From Candidatus Auribacterota bacterium (GTDB lineage: Bacteria > Auribacterota > UBA6266), in NCBI GenBank assembly GCA_023136205.1, contig JAGLRQ010000042.1, forward strand, positions 24,873-56,872: a stretch of DNA of 32,000 nt, read 5' to 3'. The first letter of the stretch is position 1. Every line of letters begins with the position of its first letter. Under the pieces are notes generated by a model. It was not told the origin of the DNA. It saw only the letters and a program-made list of their open reading frames with translations, and did no database searches. Positions 2,554-21,977 of this stretch are shown here, in pieces. The position numbers and the translations under genes were made by a program.

Positions 2554-2687
2554 TATTTCGCGCAGTGTAATTCTGAACTCCCGGTATCTTAAAACGCCGT
2601 ATATAAGGGCTAAAACCTTCCATATTTGACGCTCTAAGCCACACAAAGAGAGAACTTCGACCATAAATTTCATTGGTTGGTATTTTT

Positions 2688-2733
2688 TTATCAACAACAC
2701 TTATCAACAGTTTTTCCACACAAGATATCCACA
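2688..2733 (+). promoter_or_regulatory. cluster of four direct DnaA-box-like 9-mers
   Basis: TTATCAACA (2688-2696), TTATCAACA (2701-2709), TTTTCCACA (2712-2720) and ATATCCACA (2725-2733), all in the same orientation with start-to-start spacing of 13, 11 and 13 bp. The consensus is TTATCCACA, relaxed to TTWTNCACA. One box fits the relaxed consensus exactly and three have one mismatch. Confidence 0.4.
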
Positions 2734-2798: not shown

Positions 2799-2826
2799 AG
2801 TTTACATAATATATATTATCGGACGT
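2799..2826 (-). other. dif: dif chromosome-dimer resolution site (XerC/XerD target)
   Basis: Minus-strand reading is ACGTCCGATAA-TATATA-TTATGTAAACT. From memory, Bacillus subtilis dif is ACTTCCTAGAA-TATATA-TTATGTAAACT. That gives 25/28 identical, with the central hexamer and XerD arm identical. Escherichia coli dif is GGTGCGCATAA-TGTATA-TTATGTTAAAT. The site lies exactly where gene orientation switches from + to -. Confidence 0.8.
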
Positions 2827-3291
2827 TGTAAAAATAGAATAACCTACACCAAAAAAGTTCTCCAATTGAAAATACATCCTACAAGGTATGACTACCCTTC
2901 ATCTATTTTTACAACATCCGATAATATCAGAGGTTTATAAGACGTTCTTGCGAACATCCCATAAACCTCTGACGAATCTGAATTGTAGAATAACCGACAC
3001 CCAAAAACCTCTCCAATTAAAGAATTACATCCTAAGGTTGGCCTTATAAGGCTCATACTCATCTATTTTTACAACATCCGATAATATCACAGGTTTATAA
3101 GACGTTCTTACGAACATCCCATAAACCTCTAACTGAAACTCGGACGTTGCAAAAATAGAATAACCTGAACCCAAAAACCTCTAACGAAAAGGGTCATTTT
3201 TTAATAAACATACTTAAACATCCCTATAAGCTTTTTCATCCCATATAATAAAAAAGAGATTATATGACGTTTTTGCAAACATCTTATAATC
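2816..3291. repeat. three decaying tandem modules (~150-170 bp) built from XerC-arm-like 11-mers, a 22-bp inverted repeat and 34-44-nt palindromic hairpins
   Basis: Period markers TAGAATAACC occur at 2835, 2986 and 3156. The 22-bp inverted repeat is 2816-2837 (TTATCGGACGTTGTAAAAATAG) against 2903-2924, with one mismatch. The inverted (2903-2924-type) arm recurs at 3063-3084 and the direct (2816-2837-type) arm recurs, partly, at 3141-3157. Hairpins: 2928-2971 (11-bp perfect outer stem CAGAGGTTTAT/ATAAACCTCTG), 3091-3128 and 3258-3291. 11-mers of type TTAT(C/A)(G/A/T)GACGT: 2816, 2935, 3095, 3137 (degenerate), 3260. Complement type ACATCC(G/C)ATAA: 2914, 2954, 3074, 3114, 3279. Confidence 0.85.
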
Positions 3292-3344
3292 CCTTGCTTA
3301 TAATTTACATTGACAGCGCAAAATGGATTTTCTTAATGTAACTG

Positions 3345-3440
3345 TGGTGCTTCGCGCCTATCCTTATCGCTGCGTCTATCCTGCTCGGCGCGCCGCTGCT
3401 CACCTTTGCTACGCCTATCTTTGCCCTCGCGCCGTTTTTT
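3345..3440 (+). ncRNA. candidate small structured RNA or attenuator (GC-rich, pyrimidine-rich island)
   Basis: TTGACA at 3310-3315, then a 17-18-nt spacer and a weak -10 (TTAATG/TAATGT, 3333-3339). About 90 nt downstream has roughly 63% G+C by hand count in a ~40% genome. CGCGCC (3353-3358) and CGCGCC (3428-3433, followed by G+T6 at 3434-3440) can each pair with GGCGCG (3387-3392). There are three C/U-rich motifs: CCTATCCTTATC, TCTATCCTGCTC and CCTATCTTTGCCCTC. I recognise no known RNA family. Confidence 0.3.
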
Positions 3441-3527
3441 CTCGTTTAGCCGGTCTTCCATACCGCCCCCCTTCTATACCGCCATGTTATCATTTAAGGC
3501 AGAATTTTAAAATAATATTTTATACGA

Positions 3528-4556
3528 TTAATCACAGATAATAACTCTATTTCTACCAGTGCTTTTCGCTTTATATAATGCCTCATCGGACTTTTTTATT
3601 AACGTATCTAACTCTTTTTTAACATCTGTCTCAATCACTCCTTTTGCAACGCCAATACTAATCGTCACCGGTAAATCTCCCTTGGTTCCTGTCTCTACCA
3701 GCTTACATATCTTTTCAGCTATTTTCTTTAAAAAACCTACGTCAACAGGGGCAAGAAAAATTAAAAATTCTTCCCCGCCATATCTTCCAATTACATCGGA
3801 ACTCCTTATATTTCTTTTAATAAGGCCGGCAACCTGCTGCAGAACTTTATCACCTTTTTGATGGCCGTAGGTATCGTTGATCTCTTTAAAGTGATCAATA
3901 TCCATCATCATAATCCCAATATTATACCTGTGCCTTTTTGCCAGGGTTGATAAAAGGTTAATAGCATTGAAAAGCCCCCTTCTATTGAGGACATTGGTCA
4001 GAGTATCAATAGTAGTTTGCATTGTTAACAACTTGCTGTCATGCCATAATCTTTTGATGGTTTTTCCAAGAAGCTCCAATTCCGAAGTTACCATACCGTA
4101 TTTCTTTAAAGCATCAATAACCTTTTGGATGTGATTTTCATAGTCGTCTTTAGGCTTGCTTTCCTCCGGCAATGTTCTCATAAAGTGAAATAACAATACA
4201 AACGCGGGATGCAGTAAATAAAACTCTAAGCTGTATGCTAAAAGGAAACTATTCGTATGGCCAACCATATTTTCACATTCTTTTAATAAAAGATTGCTTT
4301 CGGCATCTATTGTTTCAAGCTCATCTTTGACCTTAACCGGATCATCAAAAACCTGAGGAATCATGCCTTTTTCCGCGAAGTACAACATTTCCCTCCAGTA
4401 TTCAACAGGAAATTTCTCTCCTAATGACATCTCCTTCCAAAAATCTCTTAGATTGTTATCTTTTTCAACCTTTGATAATTTTTCATAAATTTTATAGGAT
4501 TTTCGGTCTATTGATAAACACAGGCTAATTATATCCAGTAAAAGATTCTCTGCCAT
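3528..4556 (-). CDS. diguanylate cyclase (GGDEF domain) with an N-terminal all-helical putative sensor domain
   Basis: 342-aa ORF. C-terminal half: DIDHFKEINDTYGHQKGDKVL...RSSDVIGRYGGEEFLIF...ALYKAKSTGRNRV. The GGEEF active site is intact and RxxD (RSSD) lies five residues upstream, the I-site position. N-terminal ~170 aa are helical with ferritin-like/four-helix-bundle-like spacing, but the metal ligands are not clearly conserved. Confidence 0.9.
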   Translation of the reverse strand: MAENLLLDIISLCLSIDRKSYKIYEKLSKVEKDNNLRDFWKEMSLGEKFPVEYWREMLYFAEKGMIPQVFDDPVKVKDELETIDAESNLLLKECENMVGHTNSFLLAYSLEFYLLHPAFVLLFHFMRTLPEESKPKDDYENHIQKVIDALKKYGMVTSELELLGKTIKRLWHDSKLLTMQTTIDTLTNVLNRRGLFNAINLLSTLAKRHRYNIGIMMMDIDHFKEINDTYGHQKGDKVLQQVAGLIKRNIRSSDVIGRYGGEEFLIFLAPVDVGFLKKIAEKICKLVETGTKGDLPVTISIGVAKGVIETDVKKELDTLIKKSDEALYKAKSTGRNRVIICD

Positions 4557-12004: not shown

Positions 12005-13077
12005 AGGTAGTGCTTCTTTCCTTTTTTGCCAATAAGCTGAACCACTTTTTTAACGTTTTCAGATTTGTCTATCGGACAAATCATCACCGCATCACTTGTC
12101 TTTACCGCGATAATATCCTTCATATCGGACAGGCCAAGGGCTCCGCAGTCAGATATGGCCAGACAACCCGAACAGCTATTCAAAAACACATCCCCTTTTA
12201 CATAGTTTGCGTTTTTGTCGCATTTCATAAATCTCAATATGCTTCTCCAGCCCCCCAGATCATCCCATGTAAAATTGCCTTCTACAACAGCAATATTTTT
12301 CGATTTCTCCATGAGAACATAATCTATAGAATCTTTAACAAGTCCGGGATAAACCCTGGAAAGAACCTTTTCTATAGAGCCTTTGAATTTCAAAAAGGAG
12401 TTAACCGCCTTATTATACTGGGGAGCATGTTTCTTAAATTCTTCAAGGAAAACATCGGCACGCCACACAAACATCCCGCTATTCCATTTCATTCCCTTCC
12501 TGACATACTTCCTTGCTGTTTTTAAATCGGGCTTTTCAATAAATCTTTTGGTTTCGAAAATCTTTATTCCGGTTTTGCCGGTAAGAAGTTTGCCGGGAAG
12601 TATATATCCGTATCCCGTGCTCGGGTATGTGGGGCTTATACCTATGGTTAAAAGTTTCTTCTCTGAATAAGCAAACTCCGCTGCTTTAGAAATAGTCTTA
12701 AGGTAAAGCTTTTCATTTTCAATATGGCTGTCGGCAGGAAGCATAACAATTATTGCGTCTTTTTGCCTCCTGTATACAATAGCAGCCGCAAGGGCCGCGC
12801 AGGGAGCTGTATTCCTCCCAACCGGTTCAGCGATAATATTTCCCCCTGGAATATCTTTAAGCTGGGCAAGCGCCGCTTTCTTCTGTTTCTTTCCGACTAT
12901 TACAAGAATATTTTCGGATGAAACAATTTTTTTAATTCTACTTACGGTAGCCTGAACAAGGGTTAATCTGCCGGAAACCGATAAAAATTGCTTGGGGGTT
13001 TGTTCCCTGCTTCTCGGCCAGAATCTCTCACCCTTACCGCCTGCCATTAGAACAACAAATAATTTCTTTTTCATCAT
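12001..13077 (-). CDS. mannose-1-phosphate guanylyltransferase-like nucleotidyltransferase (no C-terminal isomerase domain)
   Basis: 358-aa ORF. VVLMAGGKGERFWPRSREQTPKQFL and GYGYI motifs of ManC/CpsB-type enzymes. Start and stop each overlap the neighbouring gene by 4 nt. Confidence 0.85.
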   Translation of the reverse strand: MMKKKLFVVLMAGGKGERFWPRSREQTPKQFLSVSGRLTLVQATVSRIKKIVSSENILVIVGKKQKKAALAQLKDIPGGNIIAEPVGRNTAPCAALAAAIVYRRQKDAIIVMLPADSHIENEKLYLKTISKAAEFAYSEKKLLTIGISPTYPSTGYGYILPGKLLTGKTGIKIFETKRFIEKPDLKTARKYVRKGMKWNSGMFVWRADVFLEEFKKHAPQYNKAVNSFLKFKGSIEKVLSRVYPGLVKDSIDYVLMEKSKNIAVVEGNFTWDDLGGWRSILRFMKCDKNANYVKGDVFLNSCSGCLAISDCGALGLSDMKDIIAVKTSDAVMICPIDKSENVKKVVQLIGKKGKKHYL

Positions 13078-13880
13078 TTATTTTTTAATCCCGCGGCTAA
13101 TTTAGAAACAAAGCGGACAACCTTTTCCTCTAAATTTCTCTTACGAAGGTTTTCTTCTATTTTTTTAACCGCAGCGCTGCCTACCACGGCCGCATCAGCA
13201 TATGCCGCCACTTCCCTAATCTGCCGAGGCGTAGAAATGCCGAAGCCAACAGCAACAGGCAGGGTAGAATACCGCTTTATCTGTTTTACCAGCTTCGGTG
13301 TTTCCGTATTTAATTTCTTTCTTGCACCGGTCACACCTGTTCTTGATACACAGTAAATAAACCCTGTAGAAGCTTCTGCTATCTTTTTAATTCTACCGGC
13401 AGGGCTGGTGGGACTAACCAGAAAAACAGTTTTTATATCCTTCTTAGCGGCAAGGTTTTTATATTCTCCCGCTTCTTCAGGCGGCAAATCGAGTATCAAT
13501 ATCCCATCTACACCAAGCTGGGAACACCTTAAAATAAATTTCTTAAGACCGAAATTCATAACAGGGTTATAGTAAGTAAAAAGAACAATGGGTAATTTAA
13601 AATTTTTGCGTTTCCTTAATATCTCAACCATATTAAAAACGCTTTTCATCAAAGCATTTTGTTTCAGGGAACGGGAAGAAGCTTTTTGAATAGTCGGGCC
13701 ATCAGCTAACGGATCAGAAAACGGTACCCCGAGTTCCAGGATATCAACGCCTTTGTTTTCCATATGGGAAATGATATTTACACTTCTTTTAAAATCGGGG
13801 TCCCCGGCCGTTAAATACAGTATAAAAGCTTTTCTGCGCGCTGCTTTAAGTTCTTGAAATTTTTTATCTATCCTGTTCAT
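13074..13880 (-). CDS. trpA: tryptophan synthase alpha chain
   Basis: 268-aa [12 protein letters not shown]...[18 protein letters not shown]...GFGIS motifs. Confidence 0.96.
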
Positions 13881-15073
13881 TTTCTCTTCTTCTTGTTTTT
13901 CTTTAAATATTCGCTGACAACCTGAACATCCTTATCCCCCCTGCCGGAAAGATTTATAACTATGAGCTTATTTTTACCAAGTTTCTTTCTGTTTTTAATC
14001 ACATACGCAATTGCATGTGAACTTTCAAGAGCAGGAATGAGGCCTTCGGTCTCGCTAAGCTTTACAAAAGCGTTAACAGCTTCCCCGTCTGTGACATTGT
14101 CATATTTAATTCTCCCCTCCTCATAAAAATAGCTGTGTTCAGGCCCCACCCCGGCATAATCAAGACCCGCTGAAATAGAATGGGTTAAACGTATTTGCCC
14201 ATCCTCGGTCTGGAGAATATATGTTTTCGCTCCATGAAGGACACCAACACTTCCTCCTTTGAAACGCGCGGCATGTTTGCCTGTTTTCAAGCCAAGGCCA
14301 CCCGCTTCGACCCCGATGAATTTTACGCGCGGATATTTTAAAAACTCATAGAAAAGCCCAATTGAATTACTTCCCCCTCCTACACATGCCACCATGTAAT
14401 CAGGCAGTCTTTTTTCCATCTTGAGTATTTGCTTTTTCGCTTCTTTGCCTATAACCCTTTGAAAATCCCTCACAATCATTGGATAAGGATGGGGGCCTCC
14501 GACAGAACCCAGGATATAATGCGTATTTCTAACATTAGTAACCCAATCCCTTATCGCTTCATTCATAGCATCTTTCAATGTTCTACTACCGGATTTCACC
14601 TTTATTACATTCGCGCCCAGAAGCTCCATCCTGAAAACATTAAGATTCTGCCTGTAAATATCTTCCTCACCCATGTATATGTCACACTGAACTCCAAACA
14701 TCGCGCACACGGCAGCAACTGCAACTCCATGCTGCCCGGCACCCGTCTCGGCAATTACTCTTTTTTTGCCCATTCTGACAGCAAGCAGTATCTGCCCGAT
14801 AGCGTTATTTATTTTATGCGCACCGGTATGAAGCAAGTCCTCTCTTTTCAGGTAAATCCTGTGTCCGAGCTCTTTTGACAGTCTTTCAGCAAAATAAAGA
14901 GGTGTTGGCCTTCCAGCATATTCTTTCAGGTAATGATTCAGTTCTTCTTTAAATTTTCTGTCGATTTTATATTTGTAATAACACTCTTCAAGCTCTTTCA
15001 AAGCTGTCATAAGAGTTTCGGGCACATACTTACCTCCGAACTCCCCAAACATTCCTCTTTTATCAGGATTCAT
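13877..15073 (-). CDS. trpB: tryptophan synthase beta chain
   Basis: 398-aa [29 protein letters not shown] (PLP Lys) and GGGSNSIG. Confidence 0.97.
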
Positions 15074-15121
15074 AAATTAATTCCCCTCGATAGCACAAGC
15101 AACACGAATCATTTTTTCAAT

Positions 15122-15745
15122 TTAAAAAATTAACGCTTTTTTCGCCAGGGCTATAAATTCCTTTAGTTTGGCATGGTCTTTTTTACCGGGAGAGCTTTCA
15201 ACTCCACTACAGGTATCAACCGCATCAGGTTTCGTTGCCATTATCGCTCCGATAAGGTTACCCACTTTTAACCCGCCCGATAATATTACCAGTTTTTTGT
15301 CTCTTTTTAATTCAGACACCAGGTGCCAGTCAAACGGAACACCGGTTCCTCCTCTTCTGCCTTTAGAAAACGTATCAAGCATAATAAAATCAGGGGTATT
15401 ATACTCGCTGATTTTTTTTACATCATCCTTGCCGGAAATACTAAAAACCTTTATAACCTTTCTCCCGAAACTGCCGCAGTACTCGGAATCTTCATCACCG
15501 TGAAACTGAAGATAATCAAGGTCACAAAAATCTGCTATTCTTTCTACTTCGCGTTTGTCTTCATTAACAAAAACCCCCACCGTAGTAACAAACGGAGGAA
15601 GTGATTTAATTATCTTTCTTGCATCTTCAGGCTTCATTCTACGGGGGCTCTCCGCAAAAATAAACCCAAGAGCATCCGCTCCATGAGCACACGCGGCATC
15701 CGCGTCTTCAATATTAGTAATCCCGCATATCTTTACTCTAATCAT
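15122..15745 (-). CDS. trpF: phosphoribosylanthranilate isomerase
   Basis: 207-aa ORF. IRVKICGIT...GADALGFIF...LSGGL pattern. Confidence 0.94.
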   Translation of the reverse strand: MIRVKICGITNIEDADAACAHGADALGFIFAESPRRMKPEDARKIIKSLPPFVTTVGVFVNEDKREVERIADFCDLDYLQFHGDEDSEYCGSFGRKVIKVFSISGKDDVKKISEYNTPDFIMLDTFSKGRRGGTGVPFDWHLVSELKRDKKLVILSGGLKVGNLIGAIMATKPDAVDTCSGVESSPGKKDHAKLKEFIALAKKALIF

Positions 15746-15764
15746 TATCAGTCCTGTTTAGTAT

Positions 15765-15891
15765 CTGGTCCCCTACGGGGAGGCTACGCTACACTTCGCA
15801 CTATTTCGTGAATCGTGAACCGTTAAAAAGCAAAAAACCTTTTAAACCATTTGTGGTATAAATTTTAAAAATATACTATTCACTATTCACC
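15765..15891. repeat. intergenic repeat element between trpC and trpF (GTGAAT-type tandem/inverted repeats plus CCTCCCC..GGGGAC mini-hairpin)
   Basis: TCCCC-TAC-GGGGA hairpin at 15769-15781. CGTGAATCGTGAAC at 15807-15820 is the imperfect inverted partner of CTATTCACTATTCACC at 15876-15891 (12-bp core, 1 mismatch). Related copies are at 20785-20800 and 23950-24033. Confidence 0.7.
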
Positions 15892-16681
15892 GCTTTTTAA
15901 TCTTTTCTATTTTAAACTCTTTTATCATTTTTCCTTTGTCTTCGGATTTCATAAGCGACTCCCCTACAAGAATCGCATCTGCACCGGCATCGCGGACTCT
16001 CTTTACATCCGACAGAGTAACAAGACCACTCTCGGATACCTTAACAACTTCATTTGGTATGTGTGAAAGCAGTTTTTCGGACACTCCTATATCTATATCA
16101 AATGTTTTAAGGTCCCTGTTATTAATTCCTATGATTTTTACACCCTGTATATCTTTAACAGCATTTAATTCTTTTTCGTTATGCACCTCCACAAGAACAT
16201 CGAGGTACATATTAAAGGAAAGCTCTATCATTTCTTTAATTTCTTTGTCCGTTAAAGCTGCCGCAATAATCAGAACAGCATCAGCCCCGGCAGCTTTACT
16301 TTCATATATCTGATATGATTCAATTATAAAATCTTTTCTTAAAACCGGTAATTTTGTATTGGCCTTTACAATAGAAAGATATTCAAGTTTACCTTCAAAA
16401 TATTTTTCATCCGTAAGGACTGACAACGCATCAGCCCCGGCTTCCGTATAAACTTTCGCTATGTTAACCGGATCAAAATTAGAAACTATTTGTCCCTTCG
16501 ACGGAGAAGCTTTTTTTATCTCAGAGATAACAGCTATGCCGCCGTTTTTTTTAATAGCCGCGGAAAACGGGCGCGGAAGAGGAGCCATTTCACATTTCTT
16601 CTTTAAAAGATCAATCGGTACCCTTTTCTTCCTGCTGTTAACTTCAAATCGCTTATCCCTTAATATATCATCAAGTATCAC
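15887..16681 (-). CDS. trpC: indole-3-glycerol phosphate synthase
   Basis: 264-aa [16 protein letters not shown]...LRKDFI...IGINNRDL motifs. Confidence 0.95.
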
Positions 16682-17694
16682 TGTTTCATCCTTGTATATT
16701 CAATCAATCTGTTTAACTTTTTCAGGGCAGCACCGGAATCTATTGAATTTTCAGCCGCTGTAATACCTTCTTTAAAATCTCTCGCCGCAGCACCGCATAT
16801 TATAGCAGCAGCGGCATTTAAAATAACAATATCCCGTCTCGCTGATCTCTCCCCTTTTAATATTGAAAAGGCCGTTTTAACGTTTTCTTCGACATATCCG
16901 CCTTTTATATCATCAATTGAGCCCTTTTTTATACCAAATTCTTCGGGATTAAACTCATAATTGCTGACCTCACCATCCTTAAGTTCGCTAATATAAGTAT
17001 TACCCGTAATAGTTATTTCATCTATCCCGTCCAGGCCATGAACAACAAAAGCCCTTCCGGATCCCAGGTTTTTTAGTACCCCGGCAATCTTAACTGTCAG
17101 GTTTTTATCAAAAACACCTATTACCTGATTCCTCGCTCCCGCAGGATTCGTCAACGGCCCCAGTACATTAAATATGGTTCTTACACCCATTTCTTTCCTG
17201 GGGCCAATTGCATGTTTCATCGCAGGATGAAGAGTCGGAGCAAACAGAAAACCCATCCCAACATCCTTTATACAGTTCGACATCTGCACTTCGTCAATAT
17301 TAATATTAACTCCCAGGCCGGCGAGAACATCCGCGCTTCCGCACTTGCTTGAAACAGCTCTATTCCCATGTTTAGCCACCGGAACACCGGCCCCGGCAGT
17401 AACAAAGGCGCTAACGGTAGATATATTAAAAGTATGAGCCCCGTCTCCTCCCGTGCCGCACGTATCAACAACATTATCACCTGCTTTAACCACAGTCGCA
17501 GCCTTCCTCATTGCCAGAGCGCCCCCTGTAATTTCCTCGACAGTTTCACCCTTCATTCTTAAAGCAATGAGATATGCCGCAATTTGAGCCGGTGTGGTAT
17601 TACCGCTCATTATCTGGCCCATCACCTGTTCAGCCTCTTCGATAGACAGATCTTCCCTGACAATTACTTTTTTAATTGCTTCCTTTATATCCAT
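16678..17694 (-). CDS. trpD: anthranilate phosphoribosyltransferase
   Basis: 338-aa [12 protein letters not shown]...[17 protein letters not shown] motifs. Confidence 0.96.
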
Positions 17695-17703
17695 ATCTTT
17701 ACC

Positions 17704-18675
17704 TTAGCCTTTAAGCCGTTTTTCAATTTCCGGAAGAACTGCTTCCGCAGAATCACACCCAATCTTAATAATTTCCTTGCTCCTTAAATATCCCATAGGT
17801 GAAATATTGCTAATATCCGGGGTAATAACAAAATCCGGCTTATCCTGTTTTAATCTTAACAGAGCAATAGTGTCTTGCATAATATATACAGAGTTCAATA
17901 TTACATCAAACATATTCAAACTCTCTTTTTCTCCTTCTTTTTTGTTTTCTATAGTTATATCAATGATATCCTTTAGTTTAACTTTCACCTCATCTTTCGG
18001 CATCTTGTCTAAAAATGTCATAACTTTATCTCTTATTTTCCCGTAATCAACTAATATTTTCCTTCCTTTTGTTTCTGAAACTTTTACCTGGTTTACAATC
18101 TTTTTAACCTCGGTTGTAATTTTAACTCCAATCGAAATATCCGCTCCCATCGCTTTTATAACAGAAACAGGAACAGGATCTGTAATACCTCCATCAATAA
18201 GGCTTCGGCCATCCATTTTAACGGGTACAAAAATACCTGGAATTGAAATACTGGCCCGTACAGCTTTTATTAACGGGCCTTTGGAAATAACAACTTCCTC
18301 TCCGGTAAAAACATCTGTTGCTACCACTGTAAATGGTCTTTCAAGGTCAGAAAAAGTTCTATCTCCGAGCAAATAAAACAAAAACTTTTCAATATTATCA
18401 CCATTTACAAGTCCGGATTTCGAAAAGGTCGGTGTAAAAAGTCCCAGCATTTCTCTCCTGTTAAGAGAAGTAATAAGGTCAGCAAAATCTTTCATAGGTA
18501 AACCTGAACAATATATGGCACCTACCAGGGCCCCCATGCTTGAACCGCAAACATAATCAGGACTGATTCCTTTTTCCTCCAGAGCAAGAAGAATTCCGAT
18601 ATGCGATAGCCCTTTTGCGGCCCCGCTGCCCAATGCAATCCCCAGTTTAGATTTTTTCTTCTTTAAAAAAGCCAT
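17704..18675 (-). CDS. patatin-like phospholipase (RssA-like)
   Basis: 323-aa ORF. Oxyanion box GSGAAKGLSHIG, nucleophile elbow GSSMGA (GxSxG) and catalytic Asp motif IDGGITDPVP. The gaps are 16 nt after trpG and 9 nt before trpD. Confidence 0.88.
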   Translation of the reverse strand: MAFLKKKKSKLGIALGSGAAKGLSHIGILLALEEKGISPDYVCGSSMGALVGAIYCSGLPMKDFADLITSLNRREMLGLFTPTFSKSGLVNGDNIEKFLFYLLGDRTFSDLERPFTVVATDVFTGEEVVISKGPLIKAVRASISIPGIFVPVKMDGRSLIDGGITDPVPVSVIKAMGADISIGVKITTEVKKIVNQVKVSETKGRKILVDYGKIRDKVMTFLDKMPKDEVKVKLKDIIDITIENKKEGEKESLNMFDVILNSVYIMQDTIALLRLKQDKPDFVITPDISNISPMGYLRSKEIIKIGCDSAEAVLPEIEKRLKG

Positions 18676-18691
18676 TTGCTTAACCCGTCAA

Positions 18692-19255
18692 CTATAACTT
18701 AAGAAAATTTCTAATAATCTTTTTGCCTTGCACGGTTAATATTGACTCGGGATGAAATTGGACACCCCAGACAGGATACTTTTTATGCTTCAATGCCATT
18801 ATTTCTTTTTCTTTTGTTTCCGCAATTACCTGCAGGCATCCGGGAAGAGATTTTCTTTCCACAATTAATGAATGGTACCTTGTCGCATCAAAGGGATTTT
18901 TTATGTCTTTAAAAATCCCTTTACTATTGTGGTATATTAATGAGATTTTACCGTGCATCAGCCGCTCAGCCCGCACAACCTTTCCTCCAAAAGCTTCTCC
19001 TATACATTGATGCCCGAGACAAACACCAAAAAGCGGAATTTCGCATGCAAATTCTTTTATTATATTAACCGATATGCCGGCTTCTTTAGGTGTGCACGGC
19101 CCGGGAGATATAACAATCTTTTCAGGAGAAAACTTTTTTATTTCATTTATTGTTATCTCATCGTTCCTGAAAACCTTCGGCATAAACCCGAGTTCACCCA
19201 TATACTGAACAATATTATAGGTAAAAGAATCATAATTATCTATCATCAATATCAT
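18692..19255 (-). CDS. trpG: anthranilate synthase component II (glutamine amidotransferase)
   Basis: 187-aa [13 protein letters not shown]...GVCLGHQ...QFHPES class-I GATase triad context. Confidence 0.95.
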
Positions 19256-19257
19256 GC

Positions 19258-20736
19258 TTAACTCCTGAATGATTCAGCCAGCTCCACGGCCTTTATCATT
19301 CCTTTAGCTTTATTCACCGTTTCATAATATTCTTTTTCAGGCACTGAATCCGCGACTATTCCTGCCCCTGCCTGTATGAAAGCCTTTTTGCCTTTTACAA
19401 CAATTGTCCTTATGGTTATTGCCGAATCAAGGTTGCCGGAAAAACTGAAATACGCTATAGCACCGGAATATATACCTCTCTTTGTATTTTCCAGCTCATC
19501 AATTACTTCCATGGCTCTTATTTTAGGGGCACCGCTGACAGTCCCCGCAGGGAAAGTAGCTTTCATCAGGTCATAAATATTTTTACCCTTTTTCAAGGTA
19601 CCTCTCACATCCGAAACTATGTGCATAACATGAGAATATTTTTCTATAACCATCAACTCGGGAACACTTATAGATCCCACGCCGCAAACCCTTCCTATAT
19701 CATTACGCCCCAAGTCTACAAGCATAATGTGCTCGGCTTTTTCTTTTTCGTCGGACAATAATTCTTTTTCCAGACTGGCATCTTCCACGCGGCTTTTTCC
19801 TCTTCTTCTCGTTCCCGCTATCGGACGAAGTTCCACATTACCATCCTCGCATCTGACATGGATTTCAGGGGAAGAGCCGATTATATTCAGGTCTTTAAAC
19901 TTAAGATAATACATGTACGGCGAAGGATTGACAGACCTTAAAGCCCTGTATAAGTTAAAATTATCCGTTTTAAAATCCATTTGAAATCTCTGCGAAAGAA
20001 CCACCTGTACAATATCCCCCGCTCTGATATATTTCTTTGCCTTAGATACAATTTTCTTAAATTTGTCCTTTGTGAAATTTGAAGAAACCTTTATCTTTTT
20101 ATCCCGGGCATACGATTCTGCAGGAAGAGGTTTTAAAGGCTGTTTGAGAAGTTTTACCAACGTATCAATTTTCTTTATAGCTTCATTATATGCCTTTATC
20201 GGACTATTTTTGATAAATGCGTTTGAAACTACCTTGATAGTGTGATTAACGTGGTCAAAAATGAGAATGGTATCAGTGAACATAAAGAAAGTATCCGGAA
20301 AATTGAACTTATCCGCATTACCATCCGGAAGTTTCTCAAAAAACCTGACAGTATCATATCCGATATAACCGACAGCACCGCCGTAAAAGCGGGGCAAGCG
20401 GTTTTCTTCCACCGCTTTATACCTCGACATGAGTATCTTCAGTTCTTCGATAGGAGTTTTGTTCATCCTGTATTTTTTTTCTTCTCCGTCTTCAATAACA
20501 GATGCCTGCTGCCCTTTGCTGGAAAAAAGAATACTTGGATTTGAGCCAAGGAAAGAATACCTTGCTATATTTTCACCGCCCTCAACACTTTCAAGGAGAA
20601 AACAAAAATTCTTTGACGATATCTTCCTGAAAGCTGACGCAGGCGTTTCCATGTCGGCAACAATTTCCTTAAACACAGGAACCAGGTTTCCTTTTTTTGC
20701 CTTCTTAATAAATTCTTTTTTGTCCGGATAATACAT
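19258..20736 (-). CDS. trpE: anthranilate synthase component I
   Basis: ORF 19258..20745. ATG at 20736 (MYYPDKKEF...) has AAGG about 11 nt upstream, whereas the track start is a [21 protein letters not shown] and GAGIVADS motifs are present. Confidence 0.95.
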
Positions 20737-20809
20737 AATTACCAACCTTTTACCCCGCGCTTCAATCTTTCTACGGTTTTTTTACAATTCACAATTCACG
20801 AACAACGAT

Positions 20810-21202
20810 TTACGGCCCCTTATTGTACACTTCATCAGGATTAAATACCTTTTCCCCGTCCGTGAGCCACTGCCCGTTATCAAGTTTTCTGTAAAAACAG
20901 CTTCTGTAGCCGGCATGGCAAGCCGCTCTTCCTTTTTGTTCAACTTTAAAGAGAAGGCAATCTTTATCACAATCAACTCGAATTTCCTTAACAATCTGCA
21001 CATTGCCGGAAGACTCCCCTTTAACCCAGAATTTCTGCCTGGACCTGCTCCAGTAAGTCATCTTTCCCGTTTCAAGGGTTCTTTTTAATGACTCCGCATT
21101 CATATACGCAACCATAAGGACTGCTGCGTCTTCAAGATCAACTACCACTGCTGTTACAAGGCCGTCCGGGCCATACTTTATATCATTGATAATATTATTC
21201 AT
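20810..21202 (-). CDS. hisI: phosphoribosyl-AMP cyclohydrolase (monofunctional, no HisE domain)
   Basis: ORF 20810..21238. ATG at 21202 (MNNIIND...) follows AGGGAAGGG and avoids overlap with his[19 protein letters not shown]...DCDKDCLL...[10 protein letters not shown] motifs. Confidence 0.93.
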
Positions 21203-21218
21203 TATAAAACCCTTCCCT

Positions 21219-21977
21219 TTAATTTCGTACACACACACCGTGTTTTTTCAAGTAATCCTTCACTTCCTCAATCTCTATTTCCCTGTAATGGAAAATCGAT
21301 GCTGCAAGAGCCGCATCAGCCATTCCATCCGTTAAAACTTTTAAAATATGTTCACAAGTGCCGGCACCGCCTGAAGCAATAACCGGAATTCTAACCGCAG
21401 AAGAAATTTTTCCTGTAAGCTCGATATCGTATCCATTTTTCGTGCCGTCAGAATCCATGCTCGTTAAAAGGATCTCCCCTGCTCCCAGTTTTTCCACTTC
21501 CAGGGCCCACTCAACTGCATCACGCCGGGCAGGTGTTCTTCCGCCATTGATGTATATCTGCCATTTACCTTCACATACCCGCTTTGCATCAATTGCTACC
21601 ACTATACACTGCGAACCAAACATCGATGAGGCTTCCTTGACAAACTGAGGATTTTTTACCACCGGCGTATTAATTGAAACCTTATCAGCTCCGCTCTTAA
21701 GCAGTTCACGTATATCCTCCAGCGAAGAAATCCCTCCGCCTACTGTAAGCGGCATAAAACACTTTTCCGCCGTTTTCTTCACAACATCAATCATTATTTT
21801 TCTTTTTTCATGGGATGCAGTTATGTCAAGAAAAACAAGCTCGTCTGCTCCCGCCCGGTCATAAACCTCAGCTATTTCAACAGGGTCACCCGCATCTTTT
21901 AAACCCTCAAAATTTATACCTTTTACAACCCTGCCCTCTTTAACATCCAGGCAGGGAATTATCCTTTTAGCCAGCAT
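21219..21977 (-). CDS. hisF: imidazole glycerol phosphate synthase cyclase subunit
   Basis: 252-aa [14 protein letters not shown]...[13 protein letters not shown]...ASGGAG motifs. Confidence 0.97.

Follow-up and report, generated by a model that had tools for sequence, protein, structure and literature searches.

An array of XerC half-site copies and hairpins beside the chromosomal dif site of an Auribacterota bacterium

The closest described counterparts of the locus analysed here are integrative mobile elements exploiting Xer (IMEX) of the CTXφ type, which form tandem arrays at dif and have a folded attP(+) hairpin (PMC3442271; Val et al. 2005, as cited there). The present locus lies in a stretch of 32,000 nucleotides from a Candidatus Auribacterota bacterium, hereafter the window, in which approximately 500 bp on the XerC side of dif are occupied by three units of ~160 bp, each containing a hairpin of ~45 nt and a 26-bp copy of the XerC half of dif whose orientation alternates. 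To our knowledge, no Xer-exploiting element without genes has been described, and those on record are from a small number of cultured pathogens. Integron attC sites undergo recombination in the form of folded single strands; the tyrosine recombinase responsible is a relative of XerC/D, and conserved non-Watson-Crick features determine which strand is used. The plasmid site cer has a small structured RNA, Rcd, encoded beside it, and BIMEs are built from alternating palindromic units separated by short motifs. A conserved gene-free array at dif would mean that the hijacking of Xer through folded DNA, so far described for CTXφ-type phages, has an ancient origin and a wide distribution or, alternatively, that the chromosomal dif of some bacteria is supplemented with structured accessory DNA or RNA.

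The dif site and the adjoining array

The dif site contains two 11-bp arms with inner ATAA/TTAT and a 6-bp centre, and a site search returned one copy only in the 32-kb window (Table 1). At this site the gene strands flip from + to − in convergent fashion and the GC skew changes from about +0.05 to about −0.25, the skew on the left side being weak. The 22-nt dif core is also single-copy in at least 120 diverse metagenome contigs, and the first 19 nt of the site are identical to the reverse complement of the Bacillus subtilis dif. Judged from these sequence features, the site is a genuine chromosomal dif, placed at the replication terminus by the skew and the gene-strand switch, and recombination by XerC and XerD under the control of FtsK is predicted to occur there. 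The DnaA-box-like cluster on the other side of dif is kept in relatives; despite its presence, a replication origin is ruled out by the converging genes and the terminus-type sign of the skew. The genes near the array are housekeeping genes, with no recombinase, replication-initiator or phage gene among them, and the window contains no RAYT (REP-associated tyrosine transposase).

Table 1. Positions of the sequence features at and around dif (window numbering).
Feature	Position	Strand	Remarks
Four DnaA-box-like 9-mers	2688-2733	+	each 1 mismatch to TTATCCACA; XerD side of dif
Chromosomal dif	2799-2826	.	28 bp; XerD arm AGTTTACATAA, centre TATATA, XerC arm TTATCGGACGT
Repeat a, copy 1	2813-2838	+	C-form, GACGT; 26-nt inverted repeat, 96% complementary, with 2902-2927 and 3062-3087
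Spacer x1 (loop between a and a')	2839-2901	.	part most variable among strains
Repeat a', copy 1	2902-2927	-	inverted XerC half-site, T-form (ACATCC on +)
Hairpin H1	2927-2972	-	21-bp stem, GCAA loop, three G·T wobbles; model R1 65.4 bits
Start of unit 2: degenerate a (GACGAATCTGAATTGTAGAATAACC) and spacer x2	2973-3061	.	63% identity
Repeat a', copy 2	3062-3087	-	identical to a' copy 1
Hairpin H2	3087-3132	-	GUAA loop; one transversion mismatch at stem base; model R1 60.7 bits
Repeat a, copy 3 (AACTCGGACGTTGCAAAAATAGA)	3137-3159	+	inner TTA of the arm lost; 86% identity
Spacer x3 and decayed T-form half-site relics	3160-3244	.	AAACATCCCTATAAG at ~3217-3231, TCATCCCATATAAT at ~3236-3249
Hairpin T	3245-3297	-	stem 3256-3295, GCAA loop; model R1 61.3 bits
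42-aa arginine-rich small gene (MEDRLNEKKRREGKDRRSKGEQRRAEQDRRSDKDRREAPQLH)	3333-3461	-	called as gene in several assemblies

The array begins inside dif and is a mosaic of two related non-coding modules, a copy of the XerC half-site and a stem-loop. The half-site module of 20-26 bp comprises 3 nt of the dif centre, the XerC arm and 12 nt of flank; its orientation strictly alternates, and copies lie tail-to-tail, or head-to-head at 10-11 bp. The stem-loop module has as its stem an XerC-arm-like duplex that is extended by ~6 bp and always contains a T·G wobble. In H1 this stem is formed, on the minus strand, by an XerC-arm-like 12-mer and a 6-bp extension, and the DNA fold amounts to −16.1 on the minus strand versus −12.8 on the plus strand. 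The first a' copy retains ATAATAT, i.e. the arm plus 3 nt of centre, while the third copy of a is predicted to pair with the second a' copy around H2, giving a composite stem. Spacer x2 includes a small palindrome, GGCCTTATAAGGCT.

The units have start-to-start spacings of 151 and 170 and decay as the distance from dif grows. A 75-nt block (2899-2973 and 3059-3133) is 96% identical between units, outside of which they are only 63-86% alike; Tandem Repeats Finder reported nothing at the array because the units are too diverged. In a preliminary description of this DNA, the XerC arm of dif had been noted as the start of a 22-bp inverted repeat. The repeat is in fact longer (26 nt, 2813-2838 against 2902-2927, 1 mismatch), recurs at 3062-3087 and has a 20-nt direct copy at 3140-3159, and its derivation from the XerC half of dif was found to hold, as were the three modules with TAGAATAACC at 2835, 2986 and 3156 and the hairpin belonging to each (2927-2972, 3087-3132 and 3252-3297). 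The recurrence of XerC-arm 11-mers is likewise real: eight of the 15 matches with at most 2 mismatches in the 32 kb fall within 2816-3270, where shuffles predict ~0.08, an enrichment of ~100-fold; the copies proposed at 3137 and 3279 need 3 mismatches. The idea that the hairpins are a collapsed dif with an XerD-arm-like AGGTTTATAA had to be abandoned. In the dif register the unit junctions of the window keep part of the XerC arm and match the XerD arm at only 0-4 of 11 positions, and the window hairpins reconstitute the XerC arm and 3-6 bp only, without an XerD arm.

Protein coding within the array was ruled out, in agreement with the preliminary description, since its ORFs have no family match and the units are repeated and differ by indels. 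One ORF of the window has no database record, probably owing to a wrong start codon. The same array is present in independent assemblies, including one 538-kb scaffold, and is therefore not an assembly artefact. Metagenome assemblies break inside the array, exactly at the terminus.

Pairing, strand asymmetry and distribution of the hairpins

All members of the hairpin family share the motif TTATNNGAYGTT-N5-6-AACRTCNNATAA, with a T·G (U·G) wobble that is invariant in 11 of 11 hairpins. Paired cells make up 87.8% in the hairpins versus 74.9% in shuffles, and double-sided stem changes number 33 where 13.8 are expected; stem pairing is maintained via compensatory changes. Every transition-type stem mismatch is C/A on the plus strand and G·T (G·U in RNA) on the minus strand, as had been noted for both stem types, and the loops read GCAA, GUAA and GCGA on the minus strand. 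A strong mutation bias between replication strands could cause this strand-specific pattern. A T at position 9 of the partner arm occurs in only 2 of 120 real dif sites, so half of the copies may fail to bind XerC. No Rfam family matched the window at gathering score, and a permissive search gave only chance-level, sub-threshold matches to hairpin models of eukaryotic miRNAs and snoRNAs.

Hairpin T has the form of an intrinsic terminator, with an 18-bp stem followed on the minus strand by UUUUUUAUUAU (3245-3255), ~40 nt 3' of the 42-aa gene. It is conserved in related loci L001, L136 and L137, as is the sequence of the 42-aa gene, in which synonymous changes are found. Hairpin T is probably the intrinsic terminator of the operon of the 42-aa gene and the GGDEF gene. 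Its stem is AU-rich, in contrast to the GC-rich genuine terminators elsewhere in the window, and its U-run is interrupted in L136 and L137. A simple promoter and terminator scanner reported no terminator, thus missing hairpin T, and promoter-like sites at chance number. A transcript of the 42-aa gene would enter hairpin T and then the array.

In each of the four Auribacterota species available the hairpin family adjoins dif, without exception on the XerC side; the sample comprises these four species and a few strains, all represented by MAGs. The 12-bp core of the hairpin has stayed intact, although the nearby signal peptidase is only 58-59% identical. Module order, orientation and copy number vary between species, and strains with a 99% identical flanking 192-aa protein differ by one indel of about one unit, so that the copy-number polymorphism sought in relatives was found at both levels. 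The end points of the strain indel lie inside spacer segments and not in XerC arms, which points to unequal crossing-over and not to Xer excision. The block of a' and hairpin is identical among strains whose spacers vary: substitutions and indels of L003 and L137 cluster in spacer x1, and L136 and L137 are without part of the spacer x3 stretch. Units within a genome are far more alike (99% in L135, 96% for the a'-hairpin block here) than units of different genomes.

Searches with the hairpin motif and model R1 gave matches only beside dif, in ~50 kb of this genome and ~30 kb of relatives, which upholds the linkage to dif within that range. A marginal match of model R1 in L056 was rejected as an unrelated perfect palindrome. 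A 20-mer of repeat a was found in one contig of a genome collection, once, in a relative. Scans of viral contigs with two hairpin patterns gave no match, phage BLAST gave nothing, and plasmid BLAST returned the dif core only, in three Firmicute plasmids. No empty dif site was found among the strains and species compared, and the distant signal-peptidase homologues P0004 and P0006 are non-syntenic, with no dif nearby. In ~770 kb from 120 dif loci of other taxa, chosen by the common 22-nt core, no convincing match to the hairpin family was observed, and none of the 120 has an inverted XerC half-site on the XerC side. Relatives with this dif but with neither array nor polymorphism had been named in advance as evidence against the proposal; all four Auribacterota species have the array, and the taxa that share the dif core without it lie outside the lineage.

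The hairpins of relatives differ in how completely they resemble dif. L001 contains two complete inverted dif-like sites, (T/A)xxGxxCATAA-TTCTAG-TTATCGGA(C/T)GT, in a 24-bp stem with a 6-bp spacer, and its Hp2 is a complete folded dif-like site with a geometry like that of the CTXφ attP(+). In the same locus a direct pseudo-dif (CATAA, 6 bp and an exact XerC arm) lies 95 nt from dif. The L128 and L135 hairpins have a bulged central region and an inner XerD-like arm TTATG; such XerD-like arms of relatives are short, with 5-8 of 11 matches, only marginally above chance. The XerC arm with 3-4 nt of adjacent centre is retained in the copies of the window, L135 and L128.

Possible origins of the array

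We tentatively favour, with a probability of roughly 0.4, the reading that the array consists of footprints or miniature copies of Xer-exploiting elements with folded att sites, acquired at dif and later reshuffled by unequal crossing-over, and that the distal hairpin has become a terminator. The modules would be attachment-site footprints, or miniature gene-less copies, of CTXφ-type elements, in which two inverted dif-like sequences fold as a hairpin in single-stranded DNA. XerC would exchange one strand pair with dif, and replication would fix the insertion, regenerating a dif whose XerC arm has an inverted att copy at short distance. Repeated insertion would yield a tandem array on the XerC side. 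Units would afterwards have been duplicated and deleted through ordinary unequal crossing-over, decaying away from dif, and the most distal hairpin, with its U-run, would now terminate the operon of the small gene and the GGDEF gene. The retention of the XerC arm and 3-4 nt of centre, which is the part needed for a XerC-first exchange, supports this proposal, while the differences in order and orientation, the likeness of units within a genome and the change of copy number between strains point to recurrent events rather than static inheritance. Several observations count against element footprints. The collections searched contained no free copy, none in a virus or plasmid and none at another locus; the junctions in the window are not dif-like, and no recombinase, replication or phage gene is nearby. 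The only observed change of copy number ends in spacers, and the hairpins resemble paralogues of an RNA terminator, with G·U pairs and GNRA loops on the strand of the operon and a U-run. We also know of no route by which a 160-nt unit would give single-stranded circles, and the gene cargo of an IMEX is missing from the ~160-bp units, whose ORFs match no family. Of the earlier suggestion of Xer-element footprints, the derivation from dif, the tie to dif and the polymorphism are supported; an element that is free or integrated elsewhere was not found in the collections searched, nor does the strain indel end at XerC arms.

Much of the same evidence can be read at the level of RNA, an interpretation that we consider rather unlikely. 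The hairpins would then be paralogous to the intrinsic terminator that serves the right-hand operon. Transcribed on the minus strand, they would form a structured 3' region by which transcripts are halted or stabilised before reaching across dif, with the a'/a stem ending transcription at the dif centre. The similarity to the XerC arm would arise because the dif arm itself forms one arm of the outermost stem and gave rise to the other hairpins. The predicted RNA fold of the array is indeed far more stable on the minus strand (−189.5 kcal/mol, z −16) than on the plus strand (−116.6, z −9), the G·U pairs and GCAA, GUAA and GCGA loops all lie on that strand, and a U-run follows hairpin T directly downstream of a conserved small gene. 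Furthermore, where Hp2 is flipped in L128 and L135, its G·U strand is that of the left-hand gene transcribed towards dif, and the L128 terminator weakly matches model R1. However, neither H1 nor H2 is followed by a U-run, the genuine terminators at other positions of the window are rich in GC, the scanner gave no evidence of a promoter and Rfam no family, and a replication-strand mutation bias alone would place G·T on the G/T-rich minus strand. A terminator ancestry also leaves unexplained the exact copy of XerC arm and centre in a', the complete dif-like sites with 6-bp spacer in L001 and the restriction to dif. The array may instead be a functional part of the dif region, with extra XerC-binding sites (accessory, decoy or loading sites) under selection and tuning the resolution of chromosome dimers, positioned much as accessory sequences are at the plasmid sites cer and psi. 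The invariable location on the XerC side in four of four deeply diverged species and the identity of the a'-hairpin block where strain spacers vary are consistent with such a role, and the compensatory changes and invariant wobble suggest constraint. Nevertheless, it appears improbable: copy number, order and orientation are not conserved, units visibly decay away from dif, 120 taxa with the same dif core have no such sites, the tail-to-tail and 10-11 bp head-to-head arrangement of half-sites is not that of a Xer core, and real dif sites seldom have the T-form arm.

The array might also be a neutral by-product: fold-back repair, template switching or slippage would have produced inverted and tandem duplications locally, in intergenic DNA at the terminus that tolerates them, with the dif arm as a chance seed and with neither Xer involvement nor function. 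The resemblance of the strain indel to unequal crossing-over, the decay of the units, the breaking of assemblies as at ordinary repeats and the lack of associated genes agree with this origin. At a divergence that leaves 58% protein identity, however, neutral palindromes should not have survived with their 12-bp core intact, an unvarying wobble and changes that compensate each other, and the inverted half-site that the dif arm would have seeded here is seen in none of the 120 other dif loci, so that a purely neutral origin is judged quite unlikely. The alternation of palindromic units with other short motifs between them recalls a genome-wide extragenic palindrome family of the REP/BIME or NIME kind, of which one cluster would lie beside dif by chance. 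This is very improbable: no further copies occur in the ~50 kb contiguous around dif or in ~30 kb of relatives, the one species-representative genome with the 20-mer of a contains it a single time, the unit reproduces a dif half-site exactly, and the cluster is at dif in four species.

A further reading, itself unlikely, is that the ~160-nt units are active gene-less miniature IMEX, Xer-dependent counterparts of MITEs, or that the hairpins form a lineage-specific dif control device that binds XerC in folded DNA or RNA. A single-stranded unit circle would fold into a rod in which the a/a' stem presents the XerC arm and the XerC-side centre of dif, and XerC alone would insert it at dif with the aid of a helper's rolling-circle machinery. 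If true, either would be a kind of Xer substrate so far undescribed. The locus provides a short set of substrates for the recognition of folded sites by XerC: the 26-bp half-site, the 45-nt hairpin and the invariant T·G.

Comparison with known systems

The array shares single aspects of its architecture with several known systems. The pdif modules of Acinetobacter plasmids (for context, PMC7399989) are similarly short and form arrays in which the Xer-type sites at their borders alternate in orientation. They are complete sites, with XerC arm, 6 bp and XerD arm, flanking gene cassettes on plasmids, whereas the array has gene-free XerC half-sites at the chromosomal dif and therefore does not belong to the pdif class. 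The accessory sequences of cer and psi resemble it as non-coding stretches of ~160-200 bp that adjoin a Xer core on its XerC side, but are plasmid-borne, contain PepA, ArgR or ArcA boxes and are fixed in single copy, while the copy number of the array varies. REP/BIME elements (PMC2817692) and neisserial NIME/dRS3 are, like the array, mosaics of imperfect palindromes in alternating orientation, located between convergent genes; they occur in tens to hundreds of dispersed copies and are not derived from dif, whereas the array is seen only at dif in the ~50 kb covered. Integron attC sites (for context, PMC7790495) are also arrayed imperfect palindromes. Unlike them, the array shows no R''/R' (RYYYAAC/GTTRRRY) core, cassettes, integrase or attI.

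The closest parallel is with CTXφ-type elements. The phage is ~7 kb long and carries genes, whereas the array units are ~160 bp, gene-free and situated in an uncultured candidate phylum; neither a free form nor a helper or replication function has been described for them, and their mobility is a proposal. The likeness to a CTX-type attP suggested in the preliminary description extends to relatives, in L001 with a hairpin that folds into a complete dif-like site, but not to the window hairpins, which have no XerD arm. In both systems, inverted dif-like sequences tens of nucleotides apart can fold into a stem with arms for Xer binding, predicted ones in the array; unpaired or mismatched bases occur in the arms and the central region, and homology is retained on the XerC side of the centre. 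Both have tandem units on one side of dif, and inverted att copies next to a regenerated dif, as in the phage arrays, would on the proposed reading be present here too.

Organisation of the array at the terminus

The window contains a single dif, of the canonical 28-bp XerC/XerD type (AGTTTACATAA-TATATA-TTATCGGACGT), at which gene strands converge (plus up to 2553, minus from 3528 to the window end). A 538-kb scaffold from this organism (L140) shows this convergence too, over ±10 kb, and in both sequences the GC skew shifts across dif from approximately +0.05 on the left to approximately −0.25 on the right; the locus is a replication terminus, with a weak left skew. In L140 (1-12000 vs 12400-21365) the skew is asymmetric although gene orientation is cleanly convergent.

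Two further elements lie on the XerD side. Four DnaA-box-like 9-mers (TTATCAACA twice, TTTTCCACA and ATATCCACA, each with one mismatch to TTATCCACA) share one orientation, with 11-13 nt spacing, 65-110 nt from dif. The cluster is kept in all relatives (L001 ~795-850; L128 ~9190-9130, minus-strand reading; L139 ~1030-1090), including a perfect TTATCCACA in L001; it is unexpected at a terminus and may be bound by another protein. Just before it, CGACCA...TGGTTG followed by GTATTTTTTTATC probably serves as an intrinsic terminator for the left-hand operon, and transcription from the left would probably end before dif.

The repeats on the XerC side derive from the XerC half-site of dif. In the 32 kb, 8 of the 15 XerC-arm matches (at most two mismatches) fall in 455 bp, where ~0.08 would be expected. 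The array of XerC-arm repeats abutting dif and its three modules, both claimed in the preliminary description, are borne out, with an inverted repeat that extends to 26 nt and three units spaced 151 and 170 nt start to start. The unit order is a - x - a' - H, in which a denotes the XerC half of dif (central-region ATA, arm TTATCGGACGT and 12 nt of flank), x a spacer, a' an inverted a with one transition (ACATCC for ACGTCC) and H a hairpin of ~45 nt. Since the array is found in several independent assemblies, it is not an assembly artefact.

Features of the dif region in the window
Feature	Position (strand)	Remarks
Probable terminator, left-hand operon	2655-2690 (+)
DnaA-box-like cluster	2688-2733
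dif	2799-2826
26-nt inverted repeat	2813-2838 vs 2902-2927 and vs 3062-3087	one mismatch
75-nt block	2899-2973 vs 3059-3133	96% identity
Hairpin H1	2927-2972
Hairpin H2	3087-3132
20-nt direct repeat copy	3140-3159
Distal hairpin T	3252-3297	shares the common core
42-aa ORF	3333-3461 (-)	conserved, arginine-rich
GC-rich island	3340-3450	at the 42-aa ORF
342-aa GGDEF gene	3528-4556 (-)	adjoins the array

All hairpins share a core of TTATNNGAYGTT, 5-6 nt and AACRTCNNATAA, so that the stem is an XerC-arm-like duplex. Arm position 9 is C in one arm, as in dif, and T in the other. On the plus strand all forward copies are C-form and all inverted copies T-form; consequently every transition mismatch becomes G·T on the minus strand, in agreement with the strand-specific pattern noted earlier. 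The predicted RNA fold of the array reaches −189.5 kcal/mol (z −16) on the minus strand vs −116.6 (z −9) on the plus strand, and as DNA the T-form-first strand of each hairpin is more stable by 2-5 kcal/mol. As duplex, half-sites lie tail-to-tail within hairpins, and a' lies head-to-head with H, 10-11 bp apart; neither layout is a Xer core geometry. The XerD-like hairpin end proposed previously did not hold up, as the XerD position in dif register beside any window copy matches at 0-4 of 11 nucleotides.

Distribution and variation among relatives

The host is an uncultured Candidatus Auribacterota (Aureabacteria) by the NCBI name on one flanking protein; only two relatives other than itself were found for the signal peptidase near dif, both at 58-59% identity. 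Using synteny (LepA, signal peptidase, response-regulator GGDEF, dif region, 190-aa gene), the locus was recovered in three other species, all with the hairpin family on the XerC side of dif in differing arrangements. In L001 the order is dif/a, x, Hp2 (the hairpin type named in relatives), degenerate a' and T. L128/L129 has dif, Hp2 in opposite orientation, an ordinary terminator and an a' remnant. In L135 the unit is a'-H-a-x-Hp2, 165 nt long and present at least twice (99% identity between copies), and the contig ends within the array. Independent metagenome or MAG contigs L005, L006, L143 and L144 also end there; the repeats thus interrupt assemblies precisely at the terminus, and the copy numbers observed, as in L135, may underestimate the real ones. 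As to the copy-number variation that the preliminary description proposed to look for, strains with a 99% identical flanking 192-aa protein are about one unit apart: dif and the distal flank are separated by 507 nt in the window, 504 nt in L003 and 334-336 nt in L136 and L137.

The adjoining 342-aa GGDEF gene is a ~1.1-kb presence/absence polymorphism beside dif: it is absent from L137 (1500-1734), despite its 99% identical 192-aa protein, and from L001 (1345-1490); in both, the response-regulator GGDEF gene comes immediately after the small ORF. The 42-aa ORF (MEDRLNEKKRREGKDRRSKGEQRRAEQDRRSDKDRREAPQLH), downstream of the GGDEF genes, contains three (K/Q)DRR(S/E) repeats encoded by three 27-nt DNA repeats; it has no match in Pfam and is retained in L001, L136 and L137 with synonymous changes.

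In the sequence searched from this lineage, the family is restricted to dif. At least 120 diverse metagenome contigs contain the 22-nt dif core, and many of them the identical 28-mer; an inverted XerC half-site in the first 400 nt of the XerC side is present in none. XerC-arm-like 11-mers within 700 nt on that side number 0-2 in these contigs, 7 in the window and 5 in L001, and the hairpin motif gave no match in their 771 kb. The core TTTACATAATATATATTATCGG is common to >120 contigs (L008-L127) from human gut, marine and sediment sources, so this dif type is not diagnostic of Firmicutes. A covariance model of 11 distinct hairpins, searched against ~910 kb, matched only the dif-adjacent arrays of this lineage, apart from an unrelated palindrome with a marginal score. 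A generic dispersed repeat is disfavoured by the lack of further copies in ~50 kb of contiguous sequence around dif. Viral contigs, phages and plasmids yielded nothing except the dif core itself; the window has no Rfam match and no recombinase, transposase or phage genes, all its genes being housekeeping.

Signs of constraint on the hairpins and possible origins

The stems covary, as the preliminary description had proposed to examine. When 11 hairpins or arm pairs of four species are aligned, 87.8% of cells are paired vs 74.9% in shuffles (none of 500 attains 87.8%), falling to 40-50% when the partner is slid, and 33 cells are changed on both sides vs 13.8 expected. A 6-bp stem extension past the arm consists of wholly different complementary pairs (AGAGGT/ACCTCT, AAGGGA/TCCCTT, TTCTAG/CTAGAA, GGGGAT/ATCCC), and the T·G wobble is kept in all 11. 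The T-form is an unusual XerC arm: of 120 real dif sites sharing TTATCGG, 74 have C at position 9, 41 A, 3 G and 2 T. Survival of a 12-bp core and its asymmetry across species at 58% protein identity counts against pure neutrality; either selection or repeated renewal fits. Strong replication-strand mutation bias could alone be the source of the G·T asymmetry in the window. A role of the hairpins as RNA has support from G·U pairs and GNRA loops that lie on the same strand as the adjacent operon, from the U-run after T, and from the flipped Hp2 of L128 and L135, whose strand is that of the gene reading towards it.

We tentatively favour, at a probability of about 0.4, that the units are footprints, or else miniature versions, of Xer-exploiting elements with a folded att; they would have inserted serially at dif and been reshaped afterwards by unequal crossing-over, with T probably co-opted as terminator of the conserved 42-aa gene. 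Such an origin would involve Xer recombination, single-stranded intermediates and mobility of the units. In L001, Hp2 comprises two complete inverted dif-like sites (TGAGGTCATAA-TTCTAG-TTATCGGACGT and AATGTCCATAA-TTCTAG-TTATCGGATGT), with a 24-bp stem and a 3-7 nt loop; in L128 and L135 the central region is bulged and the inner arm is TTATG. Against Xer-exploiting elements stand the gene-free units, junctions that are not dif-like, weak XerD-like arms and indel end points away from Xer sites, as well as the RNA evidence and the mutation bias described above; neither a free element nor a helper was found. The strain indel has its ends in x2 and x3 rather than at XerC arms, and looks like unequal crossing-over.

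Comparison with known systems

The closest known systems are CTXφ-type arrays of integrative mobile elements exploiting Xer (IMEX), pdif module arrays, cer/psi accessory regions with Rcd, REP/BIME and NIME mosaics, and integron attC; the array misses defining features of each. Being gene-free, it falls outside the IMEX definition, and without complete XerC/XerD sites in the window it is not a pdif module array. No dispersal was seen in the sequence searched, leaving REP/BIME membership unsupported, and, unlike integron attC, the array has no attC core organisation. Full-text searches of the literature on dif and XerC turned up no account of XerC-half-site hairpins arrayed, without genes, beside a chromosomal dif. 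It seems unlikely that the array is of a new type, either a non-coding, miniature IMEX or a structured device accessory to dif. The geometry reported for CTXφ, inverted dif-like sites that fold, is that of Hp2 in the relatives; the window footprint fits it: 63 nt beyond the XerC arm of dif stands an inverted copy in which the central region's XerC side is retained, and this layout recurs in tandem on the XerC side. The array is best placed among Xer-site-derived or Xer-exploiting repeats.
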